DNA of 64,000 bases from Candidatus Parcubacteria bacterium (GCA_003599625.1 QZIU01000008.1:1690-65689); one strand, 5' to 3'. Positions 3,269 through 27,910 are shown, numbered from the stretch's first letter. Numbers and translations: made by a program. The notes: a model not told the origin generated them from the letters alone.

Positions 3269-3337
3269 GGGTTGTAGTACCAGCCTACCGGCAGGCAGGT
3301 ACCGGTAGTACGCACGTTTCGGGGTTCTCAATTTTCT
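3269..3337 (+). pseudogene. Degenerate partial copy of the tRNA-Pro 5' half, interrupted by an 18-nt GC palindrome
   Basis: gtagta...ggtagtacgcacgtttcgggg mirrors the D-arm/anticodon-arm sequence of the downstream tRNA-Pro but cannot fold as a tRNA. The palindrome cctaccggcaggcagg is inserted. Confidence 0.35.
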
Positions 3338-3408
3338 CGGGGTGTAGTATATCGGTAGTACGCACGCTTCGGGTGCGTGAAGGCCGAGTTCAATTCTCGG
3401 CACCCCGA
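3338..3408 (+). tRNA. tRNA-Pro (anticodon CGG)
   Basis: Acceptor stem cggggtg/caccccg, anticodon stem cacgc/gcgtg with loop ttCGGgt, T-arm ggccgagttcaattctcggc. Confidence 0.8.
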
Positions 3409-3439
3409 GAAAGTTGAGAACGGGAATGCCATACGGCAT

Positions 3440-3500
3440 TCCCCGGGAATCTTGATAAAAGATTCGTGTAGACCGGGTTCGATTCCCGGCAGCCCGACCA
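3440..3500 (+). other. tRNA-like 3' fragment (anticodon-like arm with a 9-nt loop containing GAT, canonical T-arm, acceptor 3' strand plus CCA) lacking a matching 5' acceptor strand
   Basis: T-arm ccggg-ttcgatt-cccgg followed by cagcccg-a-cca. No upstream cgggctg partner is present, and a 9-bp hairpin gggaatgcc/ggcattccc sits where a D-arm would be. Confidence 0.3.
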
Positions 3501-3571
3501 TTGACTTCTTAATCCGACCGTGTATTATATTCTCATAAGCCCGGGAAGGGGCTTTTTTAAGAAGCAAAAGA

Positions 3572-3754
3572 ATGTCAAAACTGACAAATTACATAAAAGA
3601 GACGAAAGTCGAACTCAAGTCCGTTAATTGGCCTACGAAAAAGCAGGCTTTAAACTATACTTTGTTGGTGATAGGCGCTTCCGTGGCCGTCGCCGCTTTC
3701 CTTGGCGTATTTGACATGCTATTTGCTTATTTATTGGGAAAATTCATAATATAA
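3572..3754 (+). CDS. secE: Preprotein translocase subunit SecE
   Basis: 60-aa single-TM protein immediately upstream of nusG. This conserved secE-nusG-rplK synteny plus the SecE-like C-terminal TM helix support the call. Confidence 0.75.
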   Translation: MSKLTNYIKETKVELKSVNWPTKKQALNYTLLVIGASVAVAAFLGVFDMLFAYLLGKFII

Positions 3755-3758
3755 AACC

Positions 3759-4304
3759 ATGTCGAAACAAAAAGTCCAAGCCGGAAGAAACTGGTATGCC
3801 GTCCATACTTATGCCGGCTATGAAGATGCCGTGGTTAGAAATCTCAAGCAAAGAATGGAATCCTTGGGAATGGAAGACGTTATCTTCAATGCCATAGTTC
3901 CGACAGAGAAAAAAATAAAGATACAAGGAGGGAAGCGAAAGGTTGTAGAAGAAAAAATATATCCGGGCTACGTGCTGGTGGACATGGTCGTTACGGACAA
4001 TTCCTGGTACGTCGTGCGGAATACTCCCAGGGTGACGGGATTCGTCGGCGCGGGCACCACGCCGGTGCCGCTGGAGAAAAAAGAAATCGACTTTCTTTTC
4101 GAGAGAATGGGCATGGCGGAGCCGAAGTATAAGATGGATATCAAGGCGGGGGATGTTGTGAAGATAAACGACGGACCGTTCAAGGATTTTGAGGGAAGCG
4201 TCAGCGAGATAGACGAAGAAAGAGGCAAGATCAAAATTTTGGTTTCAATGTTCGGTAGGGAAACGCCGGTAGAAATAGATTATTTGCAAGTCAAAAAGAT
4301 TTAG
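3759..4304 (+). CDS. nusG: Transcription termination/antitermination factor NusG
   Basis: NGN domain (WYAVHTYAGYE) plus a C-terminal KOW motif (GDVVKINDGPFKDFEGSV). Confidence 0.9.
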   Translation: MSKQKVQAGRNWYAVHTYAGYEDAVVRNLKQRMESLGMEDVIFNAIVPTEKKIKIQGGKRKVVEEKIYPGYVLVDMVVTDNSWYVVRNTPRVTGFVGAGTTPVPLEKKEIDFLFERMGMAEPKYKMDIKAGDVVKINDGPFKDFEGSVSEIDEERGKIKILVSMFGRETPVEIDYLQVKKI

Positions 4305-4383
4305 ATTAAAGTTGTAGGAATTAGGCGTAGTGCTTGATTTTAATTCCTAAGAAGCTAACTCCTAATTCCTAAAAAGCTAACAT

Positions 4384-4809
4384 ATGGCAAAAAAAATAAA
4401 AACAATAGTAAAATTGCAGATTCCGGCCGGTAAGGCGACCCCGGCTCCTCCGATCGGTCCGGCCTTGGGCCAACACGGAGTCAATATCGGTGAATTCGTC
4501 AGCAAGTTCAACGAAGCGACGAGAGAGAAAGGAACCGATGTTATTCCGGTTGAGATTTCAATTTACGATGATCGGACTTTTTCATTCAAAATGAAGACTC
4601 CTCCGGCTTCCGACCTGTTGAGAAAAGCCGTCGGTGTTGAGAAAGGTTCCGGCAAGAATGTGGCGAGCAAGGTTGGAAAGATCACAAGGGAAAAACTCAG
4701 AGAAATAGCGGAAAGAAAAATGGAAGACCTCAACGCGAACGATGTGGAAGCCGCGATGAATATAATAGCGGGTACGGCCAGAAGCATGGGAGTCGTGATT
4801 GAGAAATAA
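4384..4809 (+). CDS. rplK: 50S ribosomal protein L11
   Basis: [26 protein letters not shown] is the L11 signature. Confidence 0.9.
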
Positions 4810-4820
4810 AGAATTAATCA

Positions 4821-4858
4821 AAAGCCATCATTCGAAAGATTTGATGGCTTTTGTTGTG
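4821..4858 (+). terminator. Rho-independent terminator after rplK
   Basis: 9-bp stem aagccatca/tgatggctt followed by a T-rich tail. Confidence 0.55.
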
Positions 4859-5201
4859 TTTGAGAATAAAGTGCTTTATCATTAAAGCAAATAGGACCTT
4901 ATTTTATTTCTGTACTTTAAATGCGAAAGGGGAATATATGCGTTGGAATGAAGGATTTAAATTGAGTTCTTTTTATTGCATTGGCAAGGTAACTCATGAT
5001 GGCGCGGGAAAACCGGTTGGTGTAAACAAAAACACCGGACTGCCCAAAATGCCGAGAGGTTATCTGAAGGGGATCTCCGATTTTTTCAAGCGGAAACAGG
5101 GGATTGAAACCGAAAAAAACAAGTGCGGCATTGCGGAAGCCATAGAAAATTTAAGTATTCCGTCCACGAATCTCAACTCTTACGGCATACCCGTTAAATA
5201 G
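4851..5201 (+). CDS. Hypothetical protein (occupies the position where rplA is usually found)
   Basis: ORF only, no recognisable motif. The real start is probably the internal Met near 4938. Confidence 0.25.
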   Translation: MLCLRIKCFIIKANRTLFYFCTLNAKGEYMRWNEGFKLSSFYCIGKVTHDGAGKPVGVNKNTGLPKMPRGYLKGISDFFKRKQGIETEKNKCGIAEAIENLSIPSTNLNSYGIPVK

Positions 5202-5254
5202 TTATTTATTATTTTTTTGCTTCTTTATGATCGGCCACGGGAGGATGGCCGATT

Positions 5255-6280
5255 TTATTTTACTTGAATCGTCTCTTTCGCCGCCGCTTTTATCTTTTCT
5301 TCCAATTCTTGGATCAATTTGGGATTTTCTGCTAGGTGCGTTTTGGCGTTGTCGTATCCGCGGCCGAGACTTTGGCCGTCGTAGGAGTAGGAAGCGCCCG
5401 CTTTCTTTATGATCTCATATTTTTCGCCCAAGTTTAAAATATCGCCGGTATAAGAAATTCCCTCGTTAAAAATGATGTCAAACTCGGCGGTTCTGAAGGG
5501 GGCTGCCACTTTATTTTTCACAATCTTTACTTTTACGCGGTTGCCGATAACATCTTCTCCTTTCTTGATCTGCGCCGCTCTTCTGACCTCAATTCTTACC
5601 GAACAATAAAATTTAAGAGCTTTTCCTCCGGGGGTGGTTTCCGGATTACCGAACATAATGCCGATCTGCATTCTGATCTGATTGATGAAGATAACGACGG
5701 TTTTTGATTTGGCGGTAATTGCCGTCAGTTTTCTGAGGGCTTGGGACATCAGCCGGGCCTGCAATCCGACATGGGATTGGCCCATTTCTCCTTCGATCTC
5801 GGCTTTAGGGGTAAGCGCGGCCACCGAATCGATAACAACGACATCGATACTGCCGGAGCGAACAAGGCTTTCCGTGATCTCCAAAGCCTGTTCTCCCGTG
5901 TCAGGTTGTGAGACGAGCAGGTCGTCGATCTTGACGCCAAGTTTTTTGGCATACTCCGGATCTAGGGCGTGTTCAGCATCGATGAAGGCGCAGACCCCGC
6001 CTTTTTTCTGGGCCTGAGCTATAGCGGTCAAGGCCAAAGTTGTCTTGCCGGAAGATTCCGGACCGTAAACCTCAATGATCCTGCCTCGCGGCAAACCGCC
6101 GACTCCAAGCGCCATATCAAGACTTAGGGAGCCGGAAGGTATGACATCAACATCAACCTTGGGTGTTTCGCCAAGCTTCATTATGGATCCGTCGCCGAAT
6201 TTGCTCTTGATATCGCGAAGAGCATTCTCAATGCCTGTGTCCCTGCCCTTCGATTCTTTTGGTTCTTTTTTTGAAATCAT
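5255..6280 (-). CDS. recA: Recombinase RecA
   Basis: Walker [14 protein letters not shown]1/L2 loop regions, and overall RecA-like sequence across 341 aa. Confidence 0.95.
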
Positions 6281-6281
6281 G

Positions 6282-6632
6282 TTATTTATATACCAACTCC
6301 AGTATCTCCTTTACCTGTCTGCCGAATTTATCCATGCCTGACACCTCTATTATATTGTAGCCGGAGGCAAGGAGCAAATTTCCTTTAAAATTTCCGTCCT
6401 TGTCGGTAAAAATTTGTCGCCCGTTGAGAAACACGCTGGATACATTCAGCGCCTTTCCTGTAATTTCCGTGTATGATTTTTTTACTCCTTCGCCGCTCCT
6501 GGGGGATTCGATTATTATCTTCGGCCCCTCGAGAAAAGCCTTGGCTTTGTAAAGCCCGTAGGCGCCGAAAGAGAACAGCAAAAGAGCGATGATACCGGCG
6601 CTGGTTAAAATTTTTGTTTTTTGCAAAGTCAT
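6282..6632 (-). CDS. Hypothetical membrane-anchored protein, co-transcribed upstream of recA
   Basis: N-terminal signal-anchor helix. There is a 1-nt gap to the recA start. Confidence 0.4.
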
Positions 6633-6659
6633 TTTATTAAAGCTCTTTTTAAATTCTAA

Positions 6660-8891: not shown

Positions 8892-8986
8892 AAGTTAATT
8901 ATACTTCCTATTTTCAGCAAACTCAAAAGGAAAAATCATTGAATTGATTTTTTTAGAATGTCCGTTAAAATGTCTCTAATGCAAAA

Positions 8987-9754: not shown

Positions 9755-9755
9755 T

Positions 9756-9784
9756 TTGACAAAAACTAAGCTTTGATGTATCAT
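9756..9784 (+). promoter_or_regulatory. Candidate sigma70-type promoter (TTGACA-17-TATCAT) at the head of a 480-bp leader upstream of the giant surface-protein gene
   Basis: Spacing and hexamers read directly. The long AT-rich leader 9785-10237 contains a gcggct...gccgc hairpin. Confidence 0.3.
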
Positions 9785-13795: not shown

Positions 13796-13810
13796 ACTAA
13801 CCATCTTGTG

Positions 13811-13874: not shown

Positions 13875-13907
13875 TCGCCTTTTTCCTTAAAATAAAACAA
13901 AAGCAAA

Positions 13908-14597: not shown

Positions 14598-14608
14598 CTG
14601 TTCATAAT

Positions 14609-15146
14609 CTGTGTATAACTCATCCAACCCTGCCTACCGGCAGGCAGGCCGCCGGGTTGGAATTACCGATTTTCTAAGCTATAATCCCAGGCATGGGAAA
14701 TATTTACCATATCTTGAATCGGGGGGTTAATAAAGATCCGATTTTTCTCGGCACTAACGACTATTTGCGTTTTATCTACTGTCTTCATCGCTTCAACAAT
14801 CGCGGTCGCAGGCTTGGCGAAAGAGAAGATCCGAAGGAATACCTCAAAGACCCTCCTCCTCAAGACAAACTGGTCAATATTCTAAAGTGGAGCCTGATGC
14901 CGAATCATTATCATATTCTGGTTGAAGAAGTGGTCGAAGGAGGCGCGCTTAAATTCGTCCAGCGGGTTATCGCTGGTCTGATTATTTTTTAAGTGTTGGG
15001 AGCAGGGAGTTCCCGATGATAAGCGACAAAGAGGCCTTTTTTGAACTGTATGAAACCAACGAAGAAAAATATCTCGACAGCTTCCACGACTGGCTTGTGG
15101 AAAACCTGTGAACAACTCAGTCATGCCTGCCGGTAGGCAGGTTGGA
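14609..15146 (+). mobile_element. Minimal IS200/IS605-family-like element (~540 bp): Y1 HUH transposase gene bracketed by two REP-like subterminal hairpin sequences
   Basis: The left hairpin repeat lies at 14609-14662 and the right hairpin repeat at 15096-15146. Between them is a single tnpA-like ORF with a HUH motif. The size is typical of tnpA-only IS200 elements. Confidence 0.55.
14693..15111 (+). pseudogene. IS200/IS605-type Y1 (HUH) transposase, frameshifted near the T6 run at 14981-14990
   Basis: Frame 2 gives YHILNRGVNKDPIF...LMPNHYHILVEE (HUH motif). Frame 1 continues with DYFLSVGSRE...EEKYLDSFHDWLVENL, whose ~20-residue tail resembles the C-terminal end (…YIENQ-like) of this tnpA family. 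Whether a catalytic Tyr is retained was not verified. The two pieces are in different frames. Confidence 0.6.
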
Positions 15147-15956: not shown

Positions 15957-16749
15957 TATTTCTATGCCTGGAAAATCTTTTTCAAAAGCCATTGCAATGA
16001 TTTTTGGGATAATTATCGCAATTTCTTTTTTGGCATTTGCTCTGCGTTGGAATAAAAAAGAAGAGGTTTCTCAGGTGGCAAAGCAATTAAGTCTGCCAGT
16101 TATAAGCTGGAAAAAAATTACCATAGAGAAGGAACCAAAAAAGTTCTTAATAAGCTTAAGGGTTCCCGAGGTGGCTTTTTACACCAATGATTCCTTGGCC
16201 GAAAAAATTAACGAGGATGTTGATAGATATATCGGAGCATTGAAGGATACTTTTATTCGAGGTGTCATAACTGCCGCCGATGATAACGGGGAAGCAAGCA
16301 CTCTCAATATCGATACGGAAATATTGCTTATGTCACCGCGTTTGATTTCCCTGGCTTTTACATCATCAGACCATCTGTCTGGCGGCAAAGTCGGCGACCT
16401 CGAGCGAACATATCTTATTTTCGACCTTGAAAAGGGCGAAATGATGAGGGAGGGAAACGAACTGTTTCGCGATGATTTGGCTTGGGCGGAAGCGGTAAGA
16501 ATAATGAAGCCGCTGCTGCTTTCTAAATATGACGGAGAACCAAGCTGTGATCTGATGTTTGCCCCGAAACGGGAAGCTTTCTCGGCCTCTTGCATCGGAG
16601 TTGATTACAACAATGAAGATAAAGGTCCTTTTTCTATATTCGGAGATATCCCAATTTCCGCAATCCAAGAATTTGTCGCTCCATGGGCGTTAAAAGAGAT
16701 TTTCCAACCCGGCGGGTTGGATGAGTTATCCACAGGTTTTCCACAATAA
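15946..16749 (+). CDS. Hypothetical membrane-anchored protein (possibly DUF3298/RsiV-like extracytoplasmic domain)
   Basis: N-terminal TM helix. The last 12 codons are supplied by the inverted REP-like copy at 16702-16746. Confidence 0.35.
   Translation: MLIDISMPGKSFSKAIAMIFGIIIAISFLAFALRWNKKEEVSQVAKQLSLPVISWKKITIEKEPKKFLISLRVPEVAFYTNDSLAEKINEDVDRYIGALKDTFIRGVITAADDNGEASTLNIDTEILLMSPRLISLAFTSSDHLSGGKVGDLERTYLIFDLEKGEMMREGNELFRDDLAWAEAVRIMKPLLLSKYDGEPSCDLMFAPKREAFSASCIGVDYNNEDKGPFSIFGDIPISAIQEFVAPWALKEIFQPGGLDELSTGFPQ
16702..16746 (-). repeat. REP-like element copy in inverted orientation (contains TTATCCACA)
   Basis: The reverse complement matches ttgtggaaaacctgtggataactcatccaacccgccgggttgg. 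Confidence 0.7.
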
Positions 16750-17512: not shown

Positions 17513-17514
17513 GA

Positions 17515-20500
17515 ATGAATCGTTTAGGCTTTATGAAAATATTTTCGTTAATTTTTTTAGGATTTTTCCCTGTGTTTAATTTTGTTTCAGCAAGCGAGAT
17601 TAAGTGTTCTGCCACAGGCTATTCAATCTTTGCTATAAACGGGATTTTTGTTGATGAAGACGAAGCAGATGACAATAAAACCGCACTTGAAAAAATTCTA
17701 CCTCCTTCCTTCAACAATCAACCCATCACCGTCGACTATCTCCACAACCCTTCTCATCTCGCCGGTCTGGGGGACTTGGTAAAGGTTGTATATCAGAAGA
17801 TCTTCGAATACGAGACGGTGATGGACTATGATCTGGTGGAAATGATCAGAGACGCCAGCGAGAAGGTGAAGACGCAAAAAGTCCTTCTCGTGGCTCACTC
17901 CCAAGGAAATTTCTACGCCAACAGTTTCTACGGCAGCGTGGCCGGAAAAGAAGGGGGTGTCCCCAAAGAATCCATAGGCGTTTACGCCGTCGCCACTCCG
18001 GCCGCAAGAGTGGCCGGAGAAGGGGGTTGGCTTACCTCCGACACCGACAAGGTCATCGCCGGCCTGATGTCGAAATTCCCGTTCAAACAAATCATGCCGC
18101 CCAATGACAGCATTGTCTTGAAAGAAGGCGATGATGAAATGGGACACAATTTTTCCCTCGTGTATCTCAAGTATAGCGGCGGAAAAATTGTCTCCGATAT
18201 CCAATCCTCTTTAAGTAAACTAACCTCAAGCGATGTTCAAGAGGAAGAAGAGAATTGCATCGATCCTCCGAAGATAACTTTGGCGCATAAGACCACGGGG
18301 GCGCTATTGGGCGTCTCCGACTTTGCCGGAGAATCGGTTGTCGATGCCGCCAAGGTTGTGGGAGAAAAATCATATCAACTGGGTTCATTGGCCGTAAAGA
18401 CCACCGAGCAAGTGGCTTCGGCGATAATAAAGGCTCCGGCTTTGATTTTAGGAGGTGGCCAAACTGATAACTCGGCCGCCGTCGCGGGGAATCCGGGAAA
18501 TTCCCAACCTGAGCCTGCTGAAAACTCTGCGGGTGGGCTGGAGTCTGTTGAAAACTCTGCAGTCCTGCCTGGTCGTCTTCGACCTGCCCGCCAGCCACTC
18601 TTCGCTGGCGATAGCGGGCGGGGAAGGTCGGCAGAGTTTTCAACAGGTGAAGTTGCTTCTAGGACTGCGGAGTTTTCTGCGGGAGACTCTACTAGCGAGC
18701 TGTGGAAAACTTCGCTCACCTTGCAGGTTGAAGACAACCAGCCAGGAGAGCGAAGTTTTCCACAGCCCCTTCGATCAAGAGGTTCGAATTTTTCCTCAAT
18801 CGCCCAACTCCAAAATTCTTTGGATGAGATGAGAAGACAAGCCGAGGCTTTGATGGAAGCGGAGAAGGGTGCGAAAAATGATCAAGCGGCTGAAGCTGAA
18901 GCCGCGACTCGCCAAGCCTCCCGTCCAACCCTTCTCTTCCTCGGTCCTCTGTATCCCGGCTTTGGCGGTGGAGCAGCTCCGAGTCAAATATCTCTTGTCT
19001 CAGAATCGAATCAACAGGAAGAAGAGGAAGAAGAAGAACAAGAGCCGGACTCTCTTTCGGCCCCGAATCTTCTCGTCCCTCAATGCGATTACTCTTTGGC
19101 TACGGACGGCTGTCTCCTCGCCACAACCACCGTATCATTTTCCTGGCAAGCCGTTTCCGGAGCTAGTCATTACGCCGTAAGCAAAAATGGAGAATACGCC
19201 ACGACCACGGAATTAAATTTTGTCGCAAACATCCCCGATTTCTCCGATTACAATTTCTCCGTCTCGGCCTCGTCGGCCGCTATCAGCCCCGCTTCCAGCG
19301 GGACAAGCACTCAAACTGTCTCTGTCGCCACTATTCCAATTGCCATAAACGAGATCGCCTGGATGGGAACAACCGCCTCTTCCTACGACGAATGGCTGGA
19401 AATCAAAAACAATACAAGCCATACGATAGACTTGTCTCAATGGGCCATAGAATCCCAAGACGGCCTGCCATATATCGCTCTTTCCGACGCGATCGGTCCG
19501 AAAGAATACCTTATCCTTGAAAGAAGGCAAGACGCGATAATCGTAAATCAATCCATCATTACCTACGGCACCGGAGCTTCCCAATGGGCGATGAGCAACA
19601 GCGGCGAAGAGCTTATCCTTTCTCATTCCTCCACCACGCTGGACAGAACCCCATCCGTAGCAGGCGAATGGGCCGCCGGAGACAGCGCAACCAGAAAAAC
19701 GATGGAGCGCGTCAATCCCAAAGGATCAGGAACCGATCCTTCCAACTGGACCACTTGGGGGGCAAATATCGATTTCATCAAAAGCGGCGAAGACACCGAT
19801 AATAACTCAATCTCCGGCACGCCCGGCCAATGCAATTCCGCAAGCTTCATCAACATCAACAACGGCCAAAACATATATCAGGATCTCACCCTTGAAAAAG
19901 ATAATTGCTATTATGTTTCAGAGAATATCCAAGTCTCGGCCACATCAACTCTTGCAATCGAATCCGGCGTTCAAGTCAGTCTTTATCTGAATAATCTTGT
20001 CGTCAACGGTGTCCTTGATGCCGAGGGGGAAGAAAGCAATCCGATAGTTTTCGATTCTTTTTCCGAAAATCCGACAACAAACAGGATAAGGATAAATAAC
20101 GATAACGGAACCAGTACAATGACCAATGTCGTTATCTCAAACACGGGAGGAATCAGGTTGAACAACGGAGCCGATCTGGAGATAACCAACGCGGAATTTA
20201 TCAACAACAATGCCAGCATCGAACTAAACAACAACAGCTCGGCGGAAATTGAAAACGTGACTTTCGCCAGCACCACGAATGAGGCGATCGCGGCGTACAA
20301 TGGCAGCAGTGTTTCTGTCGCTTCTTCCACTATATCCAACACCATCAACGCCGACGCTATCGGAATATACGATTCCAATCTATCGATGTCTTCGACAACG
20401 ATAGACACCGTTCTTGGCGGCGACGGCATAGGCGTTTATGATTCGACAGTTTCCATAGCCAGCTCTACGATCAGCAATGTTTTAAACGGAGATGGCATCA

Positions 20501-20715
20501 CCGCGTATCATTCAACCGTATCAATATCGACTTCCACAATAAGCGACATATCGAGCGAGATGCCGGCAAGAGACGGCATTAGTCTTTATGATGAATCTGT
20601 CGCGACTGTCCTAGACGCGGTAATCGAAAATGTCTCCGGCGAAGGTATAATCGTTTCGGAAGACAGTAGTATCTCCGGCAACGCGATAATAGAGGGGGAG
20701 GAAGTGGAGTTCTAG
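17515..20715 (+). CDS. Secreted multidomain protein: N-terminal alpha/beta-hydrolase (lipase-like) domain, GC-rich linker carrying an inserted palindromic element, lamin-tail domain (LTD), C-terminal right-handed beta-helix repeats
   Basis: Signal peptide. Nucleophile-elbow-like VAHSQGN is present. The LTD signature INEIAWMGT...DEWLEIKN...GEELIL is present. There are ~10 repeats of the xxISNTxxxDGIxxYxS beta-helix type. Confidence 0.75.
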   Translation: MNRLGFMKIFSLIFLGFFPVFNFVSASEIKCSATGYSIFAINGIFVDEDEADDNKTALEKILPPSFNNQPITVDYLHNPSHLAGLGDLVKVVYQKIFEYETVMDYDLVEMIRDASEKVKTQKVLLVAHSQGNFYANSFYGSVAGKEGGVPKESIGVYAVATPAARVAGEGGWLTSDTDKVIAGLMSKFPFKQIMPPNDSIVLKEGDDEMGHNFSLVYLKYSGGKIVSDIQSSLSKLTSSDVQEEEENCIDPPKITLAHKTTGALLGVSDFAGESVVDAAKVVGEKSYQLGSLAVKTTEQVASAIIKAPALILGGGQTDNSAAVAGNPGNSQPEPAENSAGGLESVENSAVLPGRLRPARQPLFAGDSGRGRSAEFSTGEVASRTAEFSAGDSTSELWKTSLTLQVEDNQPGERSFPQPLRSRGSNFSSIAQLQNSLDEMRRQAEALMEAEKGAKNDQAAEAEAATRQASRPTLLFLGPLYPGFGGGAAPSQISLVSESNQQEEEEEEEQEPDSLSAPNLLVPQCDYSLATDGCLLATTTVSFSWQAVSGASHYAVSKNGEYATTTELNFVANIPDFSDYNFSVSASSAAISPASSGTSTQTVSVATIPIAINEIAWMGTTASSYDEWLEIKNNTSHTIDLSQWAIESQDGLPYIALSDAIGPKEYLILERRQDAIIVNQSIITYGTGASQWAMSNSGEELILSHSSTTLDRTPSVAGEWAAGDSATRKTMERVNPKGSGTDPSNWTTWGANIDFIKSGEDTDNNSISGTPGQCNSASFININNGQNIYQDLTLEKDNCYYVSENIQVSATSTLAIESGVQVSLYLNNLVVNGVLDAEGEESNPIVFDSFSENPTTNRIRINNDNGTSTMTNVVISNTGGIRLNNGADLEITNAEFINNNASIELNNNSSAEIENVTFASTTNEAIAAYNGSSVSVASSTISNTINADAIGIYDSNLSMSSTTIDTVLGGDGIGVYDSTVSIASSTISNVLNGDGITAYHSTVSISTSTISDISSEMPARDGISLYDESVATVLDAVIENVSGEGIIVSEDSSISGNAIIEGEEVEF
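18510..18775 (+). repeat. GC-rich palindromic MITE/RPE-like element(s) inserted in frame in a coding region (16-bp TIR ctgttgaaaactctgc at 18546/18631, core cgacctgcccgcc...ggcggggaaggtcg)
   Basis: Local GC content far exceeds the genome background. Nested inverted repeats are present. The core is shared with 21309-21429. Confidence 0.6.
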
Positions 20716-20724
20716 CCATGATTT

Positions 20725-20770
20725 CCTGTGGATAAACCTGTTGATAACTCAGCCAACATGCCGGGTTGGA
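20725..20770 (+). repeat. REP-like element copy between convergent genes (cctgtggataaacctgttgataactcagccaacatgccgggttgg)
   Basis: Family match. Overlaps the last codons of the minus-strand glycosyltransferase gene. Confidence 0.65.
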
Positions 20771-22089
20771 ATGAGGGAATATGCCGCGATGGTGTCGTCT
20801 AGCATTTTCTGGAGGGAGAATTTTGACAGGATTTTTTGGCGAAGATTGGCGGCGAATTGCTCGCGAAGATTTTTATCTTCCATCAGCTTTTTAATCGCTT
20901 CGGCTAGGGCTTCAGGATTTTTGGGTGGCGCCAAAATGCCTTCTTTTCCGTTATCTATGATCTCCGGTATGCCTCCGACGCTGGAAGCAATAACCGGCAA
21001 TCCGGCCAAGCCGGCTTCAAGTAACAGATAAGGCAGGCCTTCTTTGACGGAAGGCAAGACAAAAATATCAAGGGCTTTAAGATAATTGGCCGAGTTCGGA
21101 TCAGACAATTCGTTTTTACCGATTATAAAAAATTTATCTCCAATTTCGTAATTCTTGATTCTTGATTCATAATTCTTTTTTTCTTCCCCCCAGCCAATAA
21201 GGATAGTCGTCAAGCGATAGCCTCTAGCCGCTAGCGAATGGATCGCTTCGATCAAGTTTATGTGTCCTTTGTTTTTGGTAAACTCGCCAATGGTGCCGAT
21301 AAGGTGGTCTGATAAATTTGCCGACCTTCCCCGCCCGCTATCGCCAGCGAAGCGTGGCGGGCGGGCAGGTTGAAGACAACCAGCTTGCCCCGCCAAATAC
21401 GGCGGGGGCAGGACTTCAAATTTATCAGACTGCGATTTATAATTTGCCGCAAGCTCCTCTCTTGCCCTTTCTTTTTCCAAGAAATTATAATCCTCCTGTT
21501 TGATTCCGTTATGTATTACTGTCATTTTTCTTGCCGGAGCGATTTTGTTTTTTATCGCCTCTCTATAATCATTTTCCGAGACACAGATTATTTTGTCGTA
21601 AAAAAGACAAGTCAACCTACTGATCATTTTTATAAGTATGTTTTGCCAGCGGAGCCGGTCTTCGAGAAAGGCCCAACCGTGAACTGTAAACACAGTGGAA
21701 AGTTGAAAGTGGAAAGTTGAAAGTTTATAAACAAAACAAGCCAATCCCGCAGCTCCGCCTGCTTTGGAGCTGGACACATGAACAATGTCAGGCCTTGTTT
21801 TCAAAAGAAGAAAAAAAACTTCAACAGAAGAAAAAATATCTTTTAAGAAATTTACATTTCTTTGAAAATTTTTAATTTCAAAATAGGGCAAGTTGGCCCC
21901 TGTCAGCCTTTGGGCCATCAGGCCTCTTCCGCCTCCCGCGATAATCGGCTCAAATTGATCCTTTGGCAGATTTGTCGCCAGGTCGAAAACATATTTCTGA
22001 GCCCCGCCCCAGACCGACTTGGTTATGATATATAAAACCTTCTTTTTCGTTGATTTTTCGGGCATTTTATTATACCGTAAGGATACCAT
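20749..22089 (-). CDS. Glycosyltransferase family 1 (GT-B fold; GT4-like)
   Basis: C-terminal EGLPYLLLEAGLAGLPVIASSVGGIPEII motif. Carries two in-frame repeat insertions (21309-21429 and 21695-21726). The start (22089 or 22065) overlaps the divergent neighbour. Confidence 0.8.
   Translation of the reverse strand: MVSLRYNKMPEKSTKKKVLYIITKSVWGGAQKYVFDLATNLPKDQFEPIIAGGGRGLMAQRLTGANLPYFEIKNFQRNVNFLKDIFSSVEVFFLLLKTRPDIVHVSSSKAGGAAGLACFVYKLSTFHFQLSTVFTVHGWAFLEDRLRWQNILIKMISRLTCLFYDKIICVSENDYREAIKNKIAPARKMTVIHNGIKQEDYNFLEKERAREELAANYKSQSDKFEVLPPPYLAGQAGCLQPARPPRFAGDSGRGRSANLSDHLIGTIGEFTKNKGHINLIEAIHSLAARGYRLTTILIGWGEEKKNYESRIKNYEIGDKFFIIGKNELSDPNSANYLKALDIFVLPSVKEGLPYLLLEAGLAGLPVIASSVGGIPEIIDNGKEGILAPPKNPEALAEAIKKLMEDKNLREQFAANLRQKILSKFSLQKMLDDTIAAYSLIPTRHVG
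21309..21429. repeat. Second copy of the GC-rich palindromic element, with 12-13-bp TIRs (tctgataaatttg/caaatttatcaga)
   Basis: Core ccgaccttccccgcccgctatcgccagcgaagcgtggcgggcgggcaggttgaagacaaccagc is near-identical to the reverse complement of 18583-18634. Confidence 0.65.
21695..21726. repeat. Heptamer-periodic tract (gtggaaa gttgaaa)x2, 28 nt plus gttt, inside the GT gene
   Basis: Direct reading. Encodes STFHFQLSTV in frame. Confidence 0.8.
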
Positions 22090-22096
22090 ATTTATG

Positions 22097-23263: not shown

Positions 23264-23310
23264 AAAAGCGAGTGGAGTTATAATATTATGGACAGTTAAG
23301 TCCATAATAA

Positions 23311-23928: not shown

Positions 23929-24646
23929 AAAAGACGCCATTCACAAAGCTTGGCTTTACAGGGTTCTGCAGTCACTCGCGGATGAGCCTTATCTTGCGGG
24001 TTGTTTATATTTTAAGGGCGGGACATGCGCTTCCATGCTTGGTTGGCTGGACAGATTTTCCGTTGATCTGGATTTTGATTACGCAGGGGAGGAGAAAGAT
24101 GTCAAAAAAACAAAAATCTTACTTGAGAAAATTTTTGCCGAATTGGGGTTGACTATTAAAGACGGCAGTAAAAACGGAATCCAATATTTTCTGAAATACG
24201 AGAATGACGGCCGGGGGAGAAGAATATTAAAACTGGATGCTTCGTTTCCACTCTTTCATGCCAGCAAGTATAAGCCGGAGAGATTTTTGGAGATAGACAG
24301 AATTCTGAACTGCCAAACCAAAGAAACGATGTTTGCTCATAAGCTCGTTGCTTTGAGGGACAGGTTCAACCGAACCGGGGGCATCGCGGGAAGAGATATA
24401 TACGACATTCACCATTTTTTCATGAATGGATGGAAATATGATACAGAGGTGATCATAGAAAGAACCGACAAAGAGCCGAAAGAGTTTCTAAAAGAACTCG
24501 TTGGATTTATAGAAACCAAGGTTTCCAAAAAACATATTGATGAAGACTTGAACCCGCTCCTTCCGGCGGGTAAATTCGCTTTGGCTCGTAAAGTTCTAAA
24601 GGGGGAAACAATTAGCCTTATAAAAGATGAAATAAGGAGGTTGTAG
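23903..24646 (+). CDS. AbiEii/AbiGii-family nucleotidyltransferase toxin (DUF1814)
   Basis: LYFKGGTCASMLGWLDRFSVDLDFDY matches the GGTAL...RFSEDIDF nucleotidyltransferase motif of AbiEii. Confidence 0.7.
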   Translation: MSSMILPDKKDAIHKAWLYRVLQSLADEPYLAGCLYFKGGTCASMLGWLDRFSVDLDFDYAGEEKDVKKTKILLEKIFAELGLTIKDGSKNGIQYFLKYENDGRGRRILKLDASFPLFHASKYKPERFLEIDRILNCQTKETMFAHKLVALRDRFNRTGGIAGRDIYDIHHFFMNGWKYDTEVIIERTDKEPKEFLKELVGFIETKVSKKHIDEDLNPLLPAGKFALARKVLKGETISLIKDEIRRL

Positions 24647-24686
24647 GCAGGAGAGTCTTGTATTTTTAACACTTCGCGTTAATTCT

Positions 24687-25703
24687 ATGATAACCGGCAA
24701 AAATATCTTAATCTGTACCGGAATTTATCCGCCGGATGTGGGCGGACCGGCAAAGTATGCCCTTAATCTTGAGCAAGAATTTTTAAGAATGGGGCACAGC
24801 GTCAAGGTGTTGGCTTATGGGGTAGAGAAAAAAATGCCAATAGGCATAAGACATGTTTGGTATTTTTTGAGAACGATTTTTGCCTTGGCGAAAGTCGATT
24901 TGATCATCGGTTTGGATATTTTTTCAACGGGTTTTCCGGCGGTTTTGGCGGGCAAGATTTTCGGCAAAAAAACTATTTTGCGCGTGGGCGGCGATTTCCT
25001 CTGGGAAACCTATGTCGAATCGACCGGCAATCTTATAAAGCTCAAAGATTTCTACGCAAATCAACCGCCGCTTTCTTTGAAATTCAAAATCATCGCGTTC
25101 CTCCAAAAATTCGCGCTAAAAAACGCGACGGTTTTGGCGTTTAATACAAAGTGGCATGCTGAGATTTTTGAAAAAGTGTATGAATTAAAAAAGGATGCAA
25201 TATTTATTGTAGAAAACTTTTATAAAAAAGAAAAAGAAACCAGTCCTTATTCTAGAAAGAATTATATTTTTGCGGGGCGTTTAATTAAACTTAAAAATAC
25301 AGAAGCTTTGTCTTCCGCTTTTGAAGAAGCAAAAAAAGAAAGAAAAGATATAGAATTAGAAGTGATTAGTGATATGCAGCAAAAAGAATTACTAGAGCAA
25401 ATTAAAAATTGCTACGCCGTTATACTTGTTTCAATTTCGGATGTAAATCCGAACATTATAGGCGATGCTGTAAGATTCGGCAAGCCTTTTATAGTTACCA
25501 AAGAAACTGGTTTGCCTGAAAAAGTAAAAAATATGGGACTCCTGGTAGACCCATTAGACCAGAAAGATATTAAAGAAAAAATAATAAAATTATTAAATAC
25601 TGATACTTATGAAGAATATCGTCAAAGAATTATCTCCTCGGATTTTGCGCATTCATGGAATGATATTGCAAAAGAGTTTCTGGAGATTTATAAAAATTTA
25701 TGA
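24687..25703 (+). CDS. Glycosyltransferase (GT-B-like)
   Basis: N-terminal GIYPPDVGGPAKYALNL motif and C-terminal ETGLPEK region typical of GT1/GT4 enzymes. Confidence 0.6.
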   Translation: MITGKNILICTGIYPPDVGGPAKYALNLEQEFLRMGHSVKVLAYGVEKKMPIGIRHVWYFLRTIFALAKVDLIIGLDIFSTGFPAVLAGKIFGKKTILRVGGDFLWETYVESTGNLIKLKDFYANQPPLSLKFKIIAFLQKFALKNATVLAFNTKWHAEIFEKVYELKKDAIFIVENFYKKEKETSPYSRKNYIFAGRLIKLKNTEALSSAFEEAKKERKDIELEVISDMQQKELLEQIKNCYAVILVSISDVNPNIIGDAVRFGKPFIVTKETGLPEKVKNMGLLVDPLDQKDIKEKIIKLLNTDTYEEYRQRIISSDFAHSWNDIAKEFLEIYKNL

Positions 25704-27910
25704 AAATTTTAAGTATAGGCACGGACAGAAAAATATTTGATGAGAATTCTGAAGTTAGAAAGAGAGTTATTGAATATGGCAAATTGGCGGAAGAATTACA
25801 CATCGTAATTTTAACTCAAAAGTCAAAAGTCAAAACTCAAAACGACAAATCAAAACTTAGTATATCAAATAATGCGTTTATTTATCTGACAAATTCAAGA
25901 AATAAATTATTTTATATTTTTGATGCAATAAAAATCGGCAAAAAAATAATTGAAAATTGGAAATTGAAAATTGAAAATTCAAGTGACAAGCCTCTTGTCA
26001 CTTGCCAGGATCCTTTTGAAACCGGCTTTATTGGTTGGAGAATTGCGAGAAAATTCAAATTGCCGTTGCAACTACAGGTTCATACCGATTTTTTAAGCCC
26101 ATATTTCTGGAAGGAATCTTTTTTAAATAAAATCCGAGTTTTGCTGGGGAAATTTTTAATCAAACGCGCGGATAGCATCAGGGTTGTGAGCGAAAGAATC
26201 AAACAATCTTTGCTACAAGCTACAAGCTACAAGCTACAAACTAAAGTAACCGTACTTCCGATTTTTGTAGATACGGAAAAAATAAAAAATACGCCGATCA
26301 AAACCGACCTCCATAAAAAATATCCCCAATTCGATTTCATTATTCTGATGGCCTCGCGCTTCAGCAAAGAGAAAAATATTGAGCTGGCGATCGGGGCATT
26401 CAGCGAAGTTGTTAAAATTCATCCAAAAGTCGGCTTAATCATCGTCGGTTCCGGCCAGGAAAAACAGAATTATGAACCTGCCTGCCGGCGAGGCAGGTCA
26501 AGAATAAAGAAAGAATTGCAGAAGAATATAATAATAGAGAATTGGACGGACGATCTAGCTTCTTATTACAAAACTACTGACCTGTTTTTGCTAACCTCCA
26601 ATTATGAAGGCTATGGCAGGACTTTGGTTGAAGCTGCCGCAGTTGGCTGCAAAATCATTTCCAGCGATGCCGGCGTCGCGCCGGAAATTTTGGAAAAAGA
26701 AAATATTTTCGCCGTAGGGGATAAAAATGGTTTAATCCAGAAACTTATTGCCGCTCTTTCTGGCAGTATTAAAGAAACTAAAACGATTCCAACAAAGACA
26801 AAAGAAGAATATTTAAAGGAGTATAAAGAAATTTGGGAATCTGCAGGAAAGAGAAAACCAAAAATTTTAATCGTTACCCAAAAAGTTGATATCAACGACG
26901 ATGTCCTGGGTTTTTTCCACGATTGGCTGAGCAAAATGGCAGAATCGGCCGATTTGGTTGTTGTTGCAAATTCTGTCGGAAGATATGAGTTGCCGGAAAA
27001 TGTAAAGATTTTCTCTTTGGGTAAGGAAAGGGGAGCGGGGAAGCTTGCAAAGTTTTTTAAATACCAGTTCTTGCTATTGAAATTCTTGCCAAAGTCAGAC
27101 GGCATATTTTACCACATGTGCCCGGAGTATGTATTTTCGGCGGGACTTTGGCCGAAAATATTCAGGAAAAAAACCTTGCTATGGTATACTCATAAGGCGG
27201 TTAACTGGAAACTCAAATTGGCGGAAAAATTGATTGACGGGGTATTTACCGCCTCAAAAGAGAGTTTCAGATTGCCTTCAAAAAAAGTCGAGATTACGGG
27301 GCATGGGATAGACCTCGAAAAATTTTCAATTTTCAATTTTCAATTTTCAAAAAAAGACAAAAAGACTAATGATAAATTTAGAATCATAAGTGTGGGGAGG
27401 ATCGCGCCGGTGAAGAATTATGATTTGTTGATAGATGCCGCGGAGATATTGAAAAATAAGAATTTTAGCGCGGGAAATTGGGAAATCAAAATTGCCGGAT
27501 CGCCGGCTTTAGAGAGCGACAAAATTTATTTTGAAAGACTGAAAGAAAAGATCCGAGAAAAAAAACTGGAAGATGAAATAATTTTTGTCGGCCCCATTCC
27601 AAACAAAGATATTGTGGATTTTTACCAAAAAGGCGATCTGTTTGTAAATTTTAGCGATACTGGCAGCTTGGATAAAGCGGTGCTTGAGGCCATGGCTTGC
27701 GGATTGAAGATTCTGACTTCGAATGAGGCGTTTGCAAGAATGATTCCTGAAGAAGATTTTACTAAGAATGACGCTGGTTCAATCGCCAATAAAATATTTA
27801 ACTTATCTCAAAAAGAAAATAATTCAGATCTGCAACTATTTGTTGTAGAAAAACATAACCTTGCTAATTTGATTAAAAATGTCGTGAATTTTTATAGAGA
27901 GACTATCTAG
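25700..27910 (+). CDS. Tandem two-module glycosyltransferase family 1 protein (two GT-B units)
   Basis: Two E-x7-E-type C-terminal GT1 motifs (EGYGRTLVEAAAVGCKIISS and GSLDKAVLEAMACGLKILTS). Carries four short-repeat insertions. Confidence 0.8.
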   Translation: MKILSIGTDRKIFDENSEVRKRVIEYGKLAEELHIVILTQKSKVKTQNDKSKLSISNNAFIYLTNSRNKLFYIFDAIKIGKKIIENWKLKIENSSDKPLVTCQDPFETGFIGWRIARKFKLPLQLQVHTDFLSPYFWKESFLNKIRVLLGKFLIKRADSIRVVSERIKQSLLQATSYKLQTKVTVLPIFVDTEKIKNTPIKTDLHKKYPQFDFIILMASRFSKEKNIELAIGAFSEVVKIHPKVGLIIVGSGQEKQNYEPACRRGRSRIKKELQKNIIIENWTDDLASYYKTTDLFLLTSNYEGYGRTLVEAAAVGCKIISSDAGVAPEILEKENIFAVGDKNGLIQKLIAALSGSIKETKTIPTKTKEEYLKEYKEIWESAGKRKPKILIVTQKVDINDDVLGFFHDWLSKMAESADLVVVANSVGRYELPENVKIFSLGKERGAGKLAKFFKYQFLLLKFLPKSDGIFYHMCPEYVFSAGLWPKIFRKKTLLWYTHKAVNWKLKLAEKLIDGVFTASKESFRLPSKKVEITGHGIDLEKFSIFNFQFSKKDKKTNDKFRIISVGRIAPVKNYDLLIDAAEILKNKNFSAGNWEIKIAGSPALESDKIYFERLKEKIREKKLEDEIIFVGPIPNKDIVDFYQKGDLFVNFSDTGSLDKAVLEAMACGLKILTSNEAFARMIPEEDFTKNDAGSIANKIFNLSQKENNSDLQLFVVEKHNLANLIKNVVNFYRETI
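25814..25856 (+). repeat. Heptamer-periodic tract (NNcaaaa)x6 inside the GT gene
   Basis: ctcaaaa gtcaaaa gtcaaaa ctcaaaa cgacaaa tcaaaac, in frame (QKSKVKTQNDKSKL). Confidence 0.75.
25951..25978 (+). repeat. (gaaaatt)x4, 28 nt, reverse complement of the aattttc tract, in frame
   Basis: Direct reading. Unit 2 is ggaaatt. Confidence 0.85.
26212..26239 (+). repeat. (gctacaa)x4, 28 nt, in frame (LQATSYKLQ)
   Basis: Identical to 22777-22804. Confidence 0.9.
27321..27348 (+). repeat. (aattttc)x4, 28 nt, in frame (FSIFNFQFS)
   Basis: Identical to the intergenic tract at 1660-1687. Confidence 0.9.

Follow-up and report, generated by a model that had tools for sequence, protein, structure and literature searches.

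A 20-bp palindrome, which we call P, has entered four sites in the 64-kb stretch of DNA analysed here (the window), and at each of them insertion is harmless: a dead tRNA-Pro half, the two hairpin ends of a decayed Y1 transposase gene and a break in a helix of a glycosyltransferase (GT). P is specific neither to this genome nor to the Y1 element. The explanation that best accounts for the observations as a whole is that P is a 20-bp non-coding insertion element and the cis-element of a minimal GIY-YIG nuclease system, with the local Y1 gene a bystander; on balance we consider this probable, though far from secure. We found no published description of the palindrome.

The unit is the 20-nt sequence CCTGCCTGCCGGCAGGCAGG, composed as (CCTG)2-CCGG-(CAGG)2. 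It can form a stem of 8 bp closed by a 4-nt loop, and the hairpin of a perfect copy as single-stranded DNA has a stability of -8 kcal/mol. The original prediction described an 18-mer. A search of the window with that 18-mer, allowing up to three mismatches, returned plus-strand matches at 3282-3299 (one mismatch), 14631-14648 (exact) and 15124-15141 (two mismatches), all of which, the sequence being palindromic, match on the minus strand as well. Some 0.01 such matches are expected by chance, and six matches were reached in none of 100 shuffles. A 20-mer pattern search recovered the same three sites, with the unit CCTGCCTRCCGGYAGGCAGG, and an indel-tolerant fuzzy search added only the copy in the GT gene. 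The repeat is thus real and its three predicted sites hold, but its length was underestimated and the extents have been corrected (Table 1); the predicted GT variant is likewise present, as 21 nt at 26477-26497 rather than at 26481-26501. The A8/T13 variant is common to all three 20-mers, and copies 2 and 3 are mutually reverse-complementary.

Table 1. Copies of P in the window and the features in or beside which they lie
Feature	Position	Strand	Description
Uninterrupted REP-like element	2998..3027	+	DnaA box TGTGGATAAC.. and hairpin CCAACCCGGCGGGTTG; comparison
5' tRNA-Pro pseudo-fragment	3268..3324	+	Acceptor 5' strand to anticodon loop, interrupted by P
P copy 1	3280..3299	.	CCAGCCTACCGGCAGGCAGG; A8 variant and one more mismatch; D-loop of dead tRNA-Pro half
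Spacer, dead half to live tRNA	3325..3336	+	12 nt; pairs with 3409-3420
Live tRNA-Pro (CGG)	3337..3409	+	ARAGORN, Rfam
REP-like element with P inside	14611..14660	+	Degenerate DnaA-box-like motif 14611-14623 and hairpin 14624-14660; upstream end of Y1 gene
P copy 2	14629..14648	.	CCTGCCTACCGGCAGGCAGG; nested near centre of REP-like hairpin, upstream end of Y1 gene
Y1 (HUH) N-terminal part	14693..14992	+	99 codons, NHYH / FQ / YIHLNP type; HUH motif present
Y1 C-terminal remnant	14953..15111	+	Other frame; ends ..FFELYETNEEKYLDSFHDWLVENL*
P copy 3	15122..15141	.	CATGCCTGCCGGTAGGCAGG; inverted, 10 nt past Y1 stop, then TTGG
Uninterrupted REP-like element	16704..16734	-	Hairpin 16704-16720, DnaA box 16726-16734; opposite orientation; comparison
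P copy 4	26477..26497	.	21 nt, CCTGCCTGCCGGCGAGGCAGG, P plus one G; in frame in GT4 gene

Set against their uninterrupted counterparts, the copies in the tRNA fragment and in the REP-like hairpin are clean 20-nt additions without target duplication, and the GT copy is a clean addition of 21 nt. Such precise insertions, judged against live tRNAs and the GT ortholog, do not show the combination of terminal inverted repeats and target-site duplication that marks a MITE. Copy 1 lies, as predicted, within a degenerate tRNA-Pro-like fragment, which stands upstream of a real tRNA-Pro. Neither ARAGORN nor Rfam calls a tRNA in this fragment, and its alignment with the live gene reads gtagta/P/ta(c)cggtag against gtagtatatcggtag. 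With the pairing of the spacer, an 18-nt inverted repeat (3325-3342 / 3403-3420) encloses the live tRNA.

The GT4 glycosyltransferase gene at 25700-27910 carries the in-frame coding insertion that had been proposed. The insert encodes PACRRGR (residues 259-265) and is 21 nt long, and the reading frame is therefore kept. The closest ortholog (70% identity, DNA alignment) has no palindrome, and the 21 nt fall exactly between GAA and TCAAG; orthologs lack the segment. Pfam indicates no net domain disruption, and a structural model places the extra residues at a low-confidence break in a helix.

The arrangement around the Y1 gene raises a different possibility. Two inverted copies of P of the same variant enclose this pseudogene, 45 nt before its start and 10 nt after its stop, and P could be the cognate REP of a RAYT-type Y1, with P - Y1 - inverted P a REPtron whose Y1 enzyme spreads P via single-stranded DNA. 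HUH Y1 enzymes do use DNA hairpins as substrates, and their insertions produce no target duplication (PMC6006769), and canonical GTAG-tagged REP-like palindromes are also found in tRNA-fragment D-loops (L061). We nevertheless regard this reading as improbable and largely refuted. A single P occurs in 299 kb around 80 Y1 homologues, 2.5 kb from the gene, and a Y1 gene is present in only 2 of the 120 P loci listed, flanked by P in neither; a Y1 gene flanked by P was seen in the window only and is not a rule of the clade. The window Y1 has moreover lost its central catalytic part, the tyrosine-motif region having gone by internal deletion. The ORF at 14693-14992 has 1,224 homologues, and of 10 full-length ones scanned, 6 score above the Y1_Tnp cut-off of Pfam; the window ORF, which has the HUH motif (NHYH), reaches 16.5 bits against a cut-off of 23. 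From its sequence it appears to be a pseudogene of Y1_Tnp (IS200/RAYT superfamily), and its assignment to the NHYH / FQ / YIHLNP class follows PMC6006769.

The hairpins at the ends of the Y1 gene also argue against P being its REP. The closest Y1 homologues carry another flanking hairpin, GTCAACCTG-S-CAGGTTGAC, directly before the start and over or directly after the stop, and the CCAACCCGSCGGGTTGG element of the window, in which P is nested, is the local version of it. P is not this Y1's own hairpin. The CCAACCC...GGGTTGG hairpin contains P at 14624-14660, is free of P at 16704-16720 and, at 3012-3027, is present minus its final G. With P inside it, the upstream CCAACCCGSCGGGTTGG copy is longer by exactly 20 nt, the interrupted hairpin measuring 37 nt, or the 17-nt hairpin plus 20 nt. 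The nested-insertion hierarchy of the original prediction, with P within a REP-like hairpin that forms one end of a Y1 element, is borne out by copy 2, which splits the hairpin as described. That copy 3 replaced a second hairpin, as also claimed, is plausible but not proven: a possible right-arm remnant, CAGGTTGG, is all that is left. Copy 3 is without an uninterrupted counterpart for comparison. The local Y1 would, on this evidence, be a bystander whose hairpin ends were struck by P.

Far from being limited to the copies in the window, the palindrome occurs in many other genomes. It was found in at least 120 genome stretches from several phyla and in 48 viral stretches, and the identical 20-mer, with unrelated flanks, is shared by Bacteroidota, Patescibacteria, Omnitrophota, Planctomycetota, other phyla and viral contigs. 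REPs, by comparison, are specific to a species or genus and co-evolve with their transposase. The foot that typifies REPs and REPtrons also speaks against a REP of the Y1 gene: GT[AG]G / CGTC is not conserved beside P, and positions -8 to +8 of the flanks show no conservation save T depletion at -1. GTAG immediately precedes P in only a few copies on one viral contig. Intergenic positions account for 65% of 127 P sites, as against 14% of random positions. In-frame copies occur in ORFs that by eye resemble FtsK, DNA ligase, ValRS and LeuRS, among others, and the LPAGRQ frame is used by 13 of 16 of these copies (p = 1e-4). Within contigs, 102 of 117 pairs of P are of identical variant (permutation p < 2e-4), which points to intragenomic copying. 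Short tandem repeats contain some of the copies, and one locus (L250) holds a 21-nt tandem array of P-like units.

Many of the taxonomic labels of P-bearing genomes come from MAGs, and the recurrence of an identical 20-mer in very different taxa, together with one P-like array at the end of its locus, might suggest a sequencing or assembly artefact common to many assemblies. We find this hardly credible. Cultured isolates (Winogradskyella, Flagellimonas, Olivibacter, Terrimonas and Salinimicrobium) and one curated complete genome contain P, reading frames are kept through it, the same architecture recurs in independent samples, and variants are shared within contigs. It is also very unlikely, in our view, that P is not an insertion element but a functional site selected by the host, such as a terminator, an RNA-stabilizing hairpin or a protein operator. 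Its mostly intergenic location, its stable hairpin and its frequent position in the 5' or 3' untranslated region of GIY-YIG ORFs would suit such a role, but P also lies within itself, within dead tRNA halves and, in frame, in various unrelated proteins, and orthologous sites lack it. Further, a T-run after P is missing at most flanks listed, and a search of window positions 1-30000 with curated Rfam models, at their gathering scores, matched only three tRNAs and nothing at P.

P is over-represented in hairpin tips, including its own centre (L030, L038, L044, L080, L086 and L110), and in dead tRNA pieces, where it occupies D-, anticodon- and T-loops. A stem of at least 7 bp spans the insertion point at 8.1% of P sites and at 0.8% of control positions; about 85-90% of P sites have no hairpin across the junction. 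A tRNA lies within 100 nt of 5.6% of sites, compared with 0.9% of control positions. At L005, L008, L011, L037, L060, L070 and L115, as in the window, a 5' tRNA fragment carries P in its D-loop and is followed downstream by a live tRNA of the same kind; L032 has P in the D-loop of a 5' fragment that has diverged from the downstream tRNA-Met. The same D-loops are occupied by other GC-rich palindromes at L061 and L084. The tRNA-fragment context is a recurrent pattern, and it is tied to GIY-YIG nuclease cassettes.

This association carries the explanation we favour. P lies 18-101 nt from 12 of the 13 minimal (77-90 aa) GIY-YIG nuclease genes examined, including all six that were chosen regardless of P (from Chitinophagaceae, Magasanikbacteria, Paceibacterota, Berkelbacteria, the isolate Salinimicrobium sediminis and Omnitrophica). 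Each of these six loci has a P-bearing dead tRNA piece beside the nuclease gene and a live tRNA alongside, and in five the nuclease gene lies between the two; minimal GIY-YIG genes usually have a P-bearing dead tRNA piece on one side and, on the other, a live tRNA of the same kind. Among loci selected through P, eight of the nine with GIY-YIG ORFs have them about 400 nt or less from P, whereas the 299 kb around Y1 homologues contained none. Pfam GIY-YIG (PF01541) matches each of the seven nuclease sequences that were aligned, with a best E-value of 1.4e-17. They are stand-alone ORFs that consist of the catalytic domain only, with no separate DNA-binding domain, and their nearest solved relatives are UPF0213 proteins and SLX1, a structure-specific endonuclease. 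The window contains no GIY-YIG gene, a point against this explanation; its tRNA-Pro locus may be the relic of a P/GIY-YIG cassette whose ORF has since been lost.

A GIY-YIG gene is beside only about 4% of P sites, and at most sites both a nuclease and a hairpin are missing from the vicinity. Apart from effects of shared synteny, no gene family is enriched next to P, unrelated palindromes gather in the same D-loops, and there are the copies in short tandem repeats and the 21-nt P-like array. P might accordingly spread with no dedicated enzyme, through replication errors that hairpins provoke (template switching, slipped synthesis) or through short-patch recombination, and be kept only at harmless sites, its proximity to GIY-YIG genes being a side effect. 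The link could indeed be indirect in this way, as cassettes make dead tRNA halves, which may offer the safest landing pads for any hairpin element. We think this reading rather unlikely. An exact 20-mer with sharp ends and dissimilar flanks across phyla is hard to obtain without a sequence-specific factor, P lies about 100 nt or less from nearly every nuclease gene examined, and the two also occur together where tRNAs are absent: at L111, P and a GIY-YIG ORF are inserted in frame in an HsdS-like gene, with GC below that of the host gene, and L019 has a P'-GIY-YIG-P arrangement.

We therefore return to P as the cis-element of a minimal GIY-YIG system, a role that we infer, as we do the inserting enzyme. 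After a structure-specific nick in an exposed single-stranded loop, the P hairpin would be copied or joined in. Joining of DNA is not a known activity of GIY-YIG nucleases, so a ligase or copying step must be assumed. Solo copies of P would be the short products of this process, and cassettes of P, nuclease gene and tRNA part the long ones. More tentatively, it is possible, although we would stop short of calling it probable, that P forms the cis-acting end of a mobile element of a class not yet described, in which a minimal GIY-YIG nuclease nicks the loops of hairpin- or cloverleaf-forming DNA and either bare P or a cassette results. A cassette of P, nuclease gene and replacement tRNA part would break the resident tRNA gene, and the host would then depend on the element's own tRNA copy. 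If true, this system would be common to Bacteroidota, Patescibacteria, Omnitrophota and other phyla, and both dead tRNA halves and 'LPAGRQ' inserts in housekeeping proteins would be accounted for.

P has partial likenesses to several known systems. Rickettsia palindromic elements (RPEs) and the mobile GC clusters of yeast mitochondria are selfish palindromes found in frame in protein and RNA genes of AT-rich genomes, where their inserts are tolerated in surface loops. RPEs are about 100-150 nt long and restricted to one genus, and GC clusters are confined to organelles, whereas P is 20 nt long, spans several phyla and needs a +1/-2 adjustment to keep the frame. IS1397, ISKpn1 and members of IS110/IS1111 target REP hairpins and insert centrally, giving nested elements. 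P likewise goes into the central part of an existing palindromic repeat, but as a bare 20-nt palindrome, whereas these are full-size elements that encode a transposase. Among nucleases, the closest solved relatives by sequence are minimal GIY-YIG proteins of the UPF0213/YhbQ type and SLX1 (1YWL, 1ZG2, 6SEH); the two bacterial UPF0213 proteins are annotated in the PDB as hypothetical only. SLX1 is a nuclease of branched and stem-loop DNA, and we know of no reported link between any of these proteins and a palindrome or tRNA genes.

Like the REPs of REP/RAYT systems (REPtrons, REPINs), P is a short, GC-rich, dispersed and mainly intergenic palindrome. REPs are sometimes found in frame in genes such as those for DNA ligase and tRNA synthetases (PMC3733652), and the gene for their associated enzyme adjoins repeat copies (PMC6006769); both hold for P. 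Unlike REPs, P lacks a GT[AG]G or CGTC tag, its exact 20-mer is common to phyla rather than lineage-specific, it is apparently low-copy in the stretches seen, and its associated gene encodes a GIY-YIG nuclease and not a Y1 HUH enzyme.

Finally, SegB of phage T4 is encoded by a free-standing GIY-YIG homing endonuclease gene in a tRNA gene region. SegB is mentioned in PMC13096335. The P-linked nucleases differ from this type in being only 77-90 aa long, without the separate DNA-binding domain of I-TevI and the Seg proteins, and in being accompanied by an invariable 20-bp palindrome and by duplicated parts of tRNAs. Any homing by them, with cleavage of cassette-free alleles and copying of the cassette, would be putative, the cassette of foreign GC content in the HsdS-like gene being the one indirect sign of it. 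They resemble it in their GIY-YIG domain, in being stand-alone ORFs in or beside tRNA genes and, judging by the insertion of foreign GC content in an unrelated HsdS-like gene, probably also in the mobility of their cassettes.

The palindrome that recurs in the window, a Candidatus Parcubacteria MAG sequence, is P (CCTGCCTRCCGGYAGGCAGG), a discrete 20-nt insertion without target duplication. The repeat noted in the original prediction is real, its 18-mer matching at three places in the window where about 0.01 would be expected by chance, but the unit is longer than proposed: extending the pattern gave 20 nt. A search of the window with indels allowed added only one copy, in a glycosyltransferase (GT) gene, to the three 20-mers. 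Copies 1–3 are the same variant, with A at position 8 (T at position 13 on the other strand). The single strand of a perfect P forms a DNA hairpin with 8 bp in the stem and 4 nt in the loop (-8 kcal/mol); in the A8 variant of the window the stem is 7 bp (-6.1 kcal/mol). Rfam returned three tRNAs and no other match in the window's first 30 kb.

Positions in the window of P copies and of other features discussed in the text
Feature	Position (nt)	Remarks
tRNA-Leu, tRNA-His, tRNA-Pro	3094-3409	
P copy 1	3280-3299	20-mer pattern search
P copy 2	14629-14648	20-mer pattern search
P copy 3	15122-15141	20-mer pattern search; reverse complement of copy 2
P copy 4 (GT gene)	26477-26497	21 nt, P plus one G; indel-tolerant search
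Dead tRNA-Pro fragment	3268-3324	between tRNA-His and tRNA-Pro
Inverted repeat bracketing live tRNA-Pro	3325-3342 / 3403-3420	18 nt
Y1 transposase ORF	14693-14992	99 aa
CCAACCC...GGGTTGG with P inside	14624-14660	
CCAACCC...GGGTTGG uninterrupted	16704-16720	
CCAACCC...GGGTTGG minus last G	3012-3027	
DnaA-box 9-mer (TGTGGATAA) then hairpin	2998-3027, 14611-14660, 16704-16734	REP-like element
GT gene	25700-27910	
Further perfect GC-rich hairpins	176-194, 17992-18019, 18589-18610, 21388-21407, 21750-21772	7-8 bp stems; several within long ORFs
Inverted repeat	18699-18766	32-nt arms, 91% complementary; outer ends TGTGGAAAAC-like; within ORF 17515-20715

The window holds other structures of this kind. 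It contains 15 perfect GC-rich hairpins, against 0–4 in shuffled sequence, and a long inverted repeat that leaves its host reading frame intact and may likewise have arisen when a palindromic element entered coding sequence. GC content is 0.40–0.51 in the first 24 kb and 0.35–0.41 in 24000-64000; of the four P copies, only the GT copy lies outside the GC-richer part, just beyond the boundary.

Copies 2 and 3 flank a decayed HUH (Y1) transposase gene, lying 45 nt upstream of its start and 10 nt downstream of its stop. Direct protein-family scans of this ORF were all sub-threshold, and its homologues numbered two in a word-indexed search versus 1,224 in an exhaustive one. Full-length relatives span 200–250 aa, pass the Pfam Y1_Tnp cut-off in six of ten cases and carry the motifs NH[YF]H, FQ and Y[IV]HLNP, the signature of TnpA(Y1) subclass 2.1 (Quentin et al. 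2018, PMC6006769). In the window gene, the central region with the tyrosine motif is missing and a C-terminal remnant survives in another frame; judged by its sequence, the gene is a pseudogene. That P is this gene's own REP was rejected from both directions. Across 80 fetched loci encoding Y1-protein relatives (299 kb in total), P occurs once, 2.5 kb from the gene, and only 2 of the at least 120 P stretches listed contain a Y1 gene, which flanks P in neither. Instead, each of the six closest Y1 loci is flanked by the hairpin GTCAACCTG-S-CAGGTTGAC or a close variant, just 5' of the start and over or just past the stop, often in inverted orientation. This hairpin is similar to CCAACCCGSCGGGTTGG of the window, so the cognate end of the Y1 gene is the latter element rather than P. 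Copy 2 sits inside CCAACCC...GGGTTGG, and the interrupted hairpin is exactly 20 nt longer than the uninterrupted one. Because the cognate hairpin differs from P and P is nested in it, the predicted hierarchy, in which a small palindrome is nested in a REP-like hairpin that terminates an IS-like gene, was right.

The REP-like element beside the Y1 gene consists of a DnaA-box 9-mer followed by the hairpin, an arrangement also seen in L125, L142 and other Y1 loci; such 9-mers number 32 in the 299 kb of Y1-homologue loci versus 6 in 872 kb of other loci. Subclass 2.1 proteins are reported to possess a DnaA_C-like tail but to lack REPs (PMC6006769), whereas the CPR members analysed here do have flanking hairpins.

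The proposed in-frame coding insertion also holds. The GT gene encodes two fused GT4-type halves (736 aa; first-half relatives are ~370 aa). When 120 first-half relatives were aligned, the window GT had six extra residues compared with its closest relative, protein P0003 (70% identity); in the DNA, the 21-nt palindrome, precisely absent from this orthologue, stands exactly between the orthologue's GAA and TCAAG, with a separate 3-nt loss downstream. By itself a 20-nt insertion would shift the reading frame, and the extra G corrects this. In an AlphaFold model (mean pLDDT 92.7, falling to ~61 in the stretch with the inserted residues), residues 259–265 lie in a break between helices 255–263 and 268–276. 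The GT family is a hot spot: three orthologues have GC-rich hairpin insertions inside the same four codons. One of these is a P+1 copy, and its position three codons from the window's site points to an independent insertion. The comparison covered the window and stretches L001, L003, L004 and L253; in L001 and L003, the two orthologues read at the DNA level, a tandemly repeated heptamer, (AATCTCA)n, encodes the NLKS.. motif next to the insertion.

Among the P loci, 16 copies lie well within long ORFs, which by eye are similar to FtsK, DNA ligase, ValRS, LeuRS, a histidine kinase, MiaA and others, and 13 of these are read in the frame LPAGRQ (binomial p = 1e-4). In-frame insertions in DNA ligase and tRNA synthetase genes are reported from other REP families (PMC3733652).

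P is common to several phyla. A scan of one genome per species returned at least 120 P stretches, those listed representing, among others, Bacteroidota (including cultured Winogradskyella, Flagellimonas, Olivibacter and Terrimonas), many Patescibacteria lineages (including one curated complete WWE3 genome), Omnitrophota, Planctomycetota, Ignavibacteria, Bdellovibrionota, Nitrospirota and uncultured Gammaproteobacteria; IMG/VR added 48. Nearly all listed matches are the full 20-mer, although the query fixed only 18 positions. The flanks are unrelated, with T depletion directly before P as the sole positional signal, and 65% of the sites among the listed matches are intergenic versus 14% of random positions in the same stretches. 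P is also copied within genomes, as indicated by within-contig pairs, of which 102 of 117 share the same variant type (permutation p < 2e-4).

P is enriched in hairpin loops and in tRNA loops. A perfect stem of at least 7 bp spans the junction at 8.1% of P sites versus 0.8% of control positions; window copy 2 exemplifies such hairpin-tip insertion, and in six stretches (L030, L038, L044, L080, L086 and L110) P is nested at the centre of another P. At 8% of sites this is a subset only, and hairpin-loop targeting was rejected as a general rule.

Three further readings of the flanks were also set aside. When all ORFs up to 1.5 kb from P were clustered by all-against-all BLAST, the only families to emerge were unrelated ones, namely response regulators, phage portal proteins and ParB; the ParB signal arises because the ParB/tRNA-Leu neighbourhood is conserved in Parcubacteria. 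Inspection of the ORFs between P pairs found no transposase, against P being the joined ends of a larger excised element. Flanking direct repeats are weak as target duplications and confined to few loci; some are duplicated tRNA pieces, and one may be a frame-restoring heptamer duplication.

Other repeats were seen near P. L250 (3916-4142; IMG/VR contig 3300025106_000007) has 11 or more tandem 21-nt units (CATGCCTACCGGCAGGCAGGC), an array that reaches the end of the stretch, with several more P-like copies within 4 kb. In Bacteroidota and viral contigs (L123, L230, L231, L026 and L098), P repeatedly stands directly next to a different GC-rich motif (..CTCCCCTCTCCTTTGGAGAGGG..GGGGTGAGG..), apparently a further palindromic repeat family, present in more than one group.

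A tRNA lies within 100 nt of 5.6% of P sites versus 0.9% of control positions. In the window, the dead tRNA-Pro fragment, a broken gene piece, duplicates the first ~38 nt of tRNA-Pro with P precisely in its D-loop (gtagta|P|taccggtag, against gtagtatatcggtag in the live gene) and is followed, after a 12-nt spacer, by the live tRNA-Pro. Elsewhere, a 5' tRNA fragment with P in the D-loop lies just upstream of a live tRNA in L008, L011 (Omnitrophota), L032, L037 and L005 (Bacteroidota), L060, L070 and L115; fragment and live tRNA are of the same kind in all except L032, whose fragment is divergent. In other dead tRNA pieces P occupies the anticodon loop or the T-loop, and in a phage tRNA-Met (L236, 2239-2330) it adds an arm to the variable loop, yet ARAGORN still calls the gene as a tRNA.

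A contig related to the latter (L207, 8616) has the same tRNA-Met insertion with a truncated T-arm. The live tRNA-Pro of the window is bracketed by an inverted repeat that prolongs its acceptor stem into leader and trailer, and the live tRNA-Leu of L262 shows similar pairing. In several Parcubacteria (L008, L115, L259 and L261), parB, and also parA, adjoins the tRNA-Leu(CAA)/GIY-YIG/P locus. In L061 (~4920-5120, - strand) and L084 (~1740-1930), live tRNA-Pro and tRNA-Ile are preceded by 5' tRNA fragments whose D-loop is occupied by other GC-rich palindromes, such as GTAG-tagged ones, TCCGCCAGAGGCGGA and CCAGCCTAGGGCTGG, so dead tRNA halves may collect palindromic elements in general.

P is physically linked to genes for minimal GIY-YIG nucleases. 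Where the spacer between dead piece and live tRNA is long, it encodes a protein of 77–90 aa with the motif ..REKYLKSG.., and all seven aligned spacer-encoded sequences match Pfam GIY-YIG. In stretches selected by P, eight of nine loci with GIY-YIG ORFs have them within ~400 nt of P; the 299 kb of Y1 loci and the 64-kb window contain none. The family exceeds 7,500 relatives at E ≤ 1e-8 in one search, with Bacteroidota, Patescibacteria and Omnitrophica, all P-carrying taxa, among the named sources. A plasmid search gave no matches and a phage search only three weak ones; relatives in viral contigs came from only two contigs, both already known through P. Among solved structures, the closest relatives are the structure-specific endonuclease SLX1 and a pair of bacterial UPF0213 proteins whose entries call them hypothetical.

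The link also appears when P plays no part in the choice of loci. Loci of six family members were picked by taxon and by the length of their contig, and in all six the nuclease ORF has a P-bearing dead tRNA piece no more than 70 nt away and a live tRNA alongside. Five follow the order dead piece (P in the D-loop or anticodon loop), ORF, live tRNA, the last, tRNA-Leu(CAA) in four and tRNA-Asn in one, beginning 0–30 nt past the nuclease stop codon; in three of the five, a 3' tRNA fragment with P or P variants in its loops comes next. In the sixth, from the isolate Salinimicrobium sediminis, the live tRNA-Leu(CAA) precedes two nuclease copies, and behind each copy comes a 3' tRNA piece whose T-loop holds P. 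Overall, P (up to three changes) lies 18–101 nt from the ORF in 12 of 13 nuclease genes. The window's tRNA-Pro locus would then be a relic of such a cassette (P, nuclease gene and tRNA part) minus its ORF, and L008 is probably a relic of this sort when set against L259 and L261, the ParB/tRNA-Leu neighbourhood being common to all three.

The main rival explanation is that the link is indirect: cassettes would yield dead tRNA halves, and it is there that any hairpin element survives best. The other palindromes in the same D-loops of L061 and L084 fit this account, as does the nuclease gene adjoining only ~4% of P sites. Two loci have P and nuclease together with no tRNA nearby: in L111, an HsdS-like gene carries both in frame, at the junction of its two target-recognition halves, and in L019 the nuclease gene stands between a partial and a full P. 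The inserted segment of L111 (3861-4180) has a GC content of 0.38–0.50, versus mostly 0.53–0.73 in the surrounding type I restriction specificity gene.

If the link is direct, the nuclease would make a structure-specific nick in an exposed loop, where P would then be copied or joined, and solo P copies would be short products of the process that moves cassettes. We rate P as a palindromic insertion element, a known kind, in a new form, and see a considerable chance that it points to nuclease-driven elements as a new class. The literature, as incompletely covered here, gave no description of the 20-mer, the LPAGRQ peptide, the GIY-YIG link or the dead-tRNA architecture. If this reading is true, few known insertion elements are as small as P, its constancy of sequence between distant phyla is unusual, and a testable function follows for the very large UPF0213-like family of minimal GIY-YIG proteins. 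The reading would also explain, in CPR and Bacteroidota genomes, the recurrence of half tRNA genes adjoining live ones, of small nuclease genes beside tRNAs and of conserved proteins into which short GC-rich peptides (LPAGRQ) are inserted. In practice, gene calling, tRNA detection and marker-protein alignment can go wrong at P copies and dead tRNA halves.

Among known systems, the cassettes are similar to free-standing GIY-YIG homing endonuclease genes near tRNA genes, such as T4 SegB, but have no DNA-binding domain. P itself behaves like REP and RPE-type palindromic elements, but differs from REP/RAYT systems in the defining features examined, having neither a GTAG or CGTC tag nor a cognate Y1 gene and not being lineage-specific.
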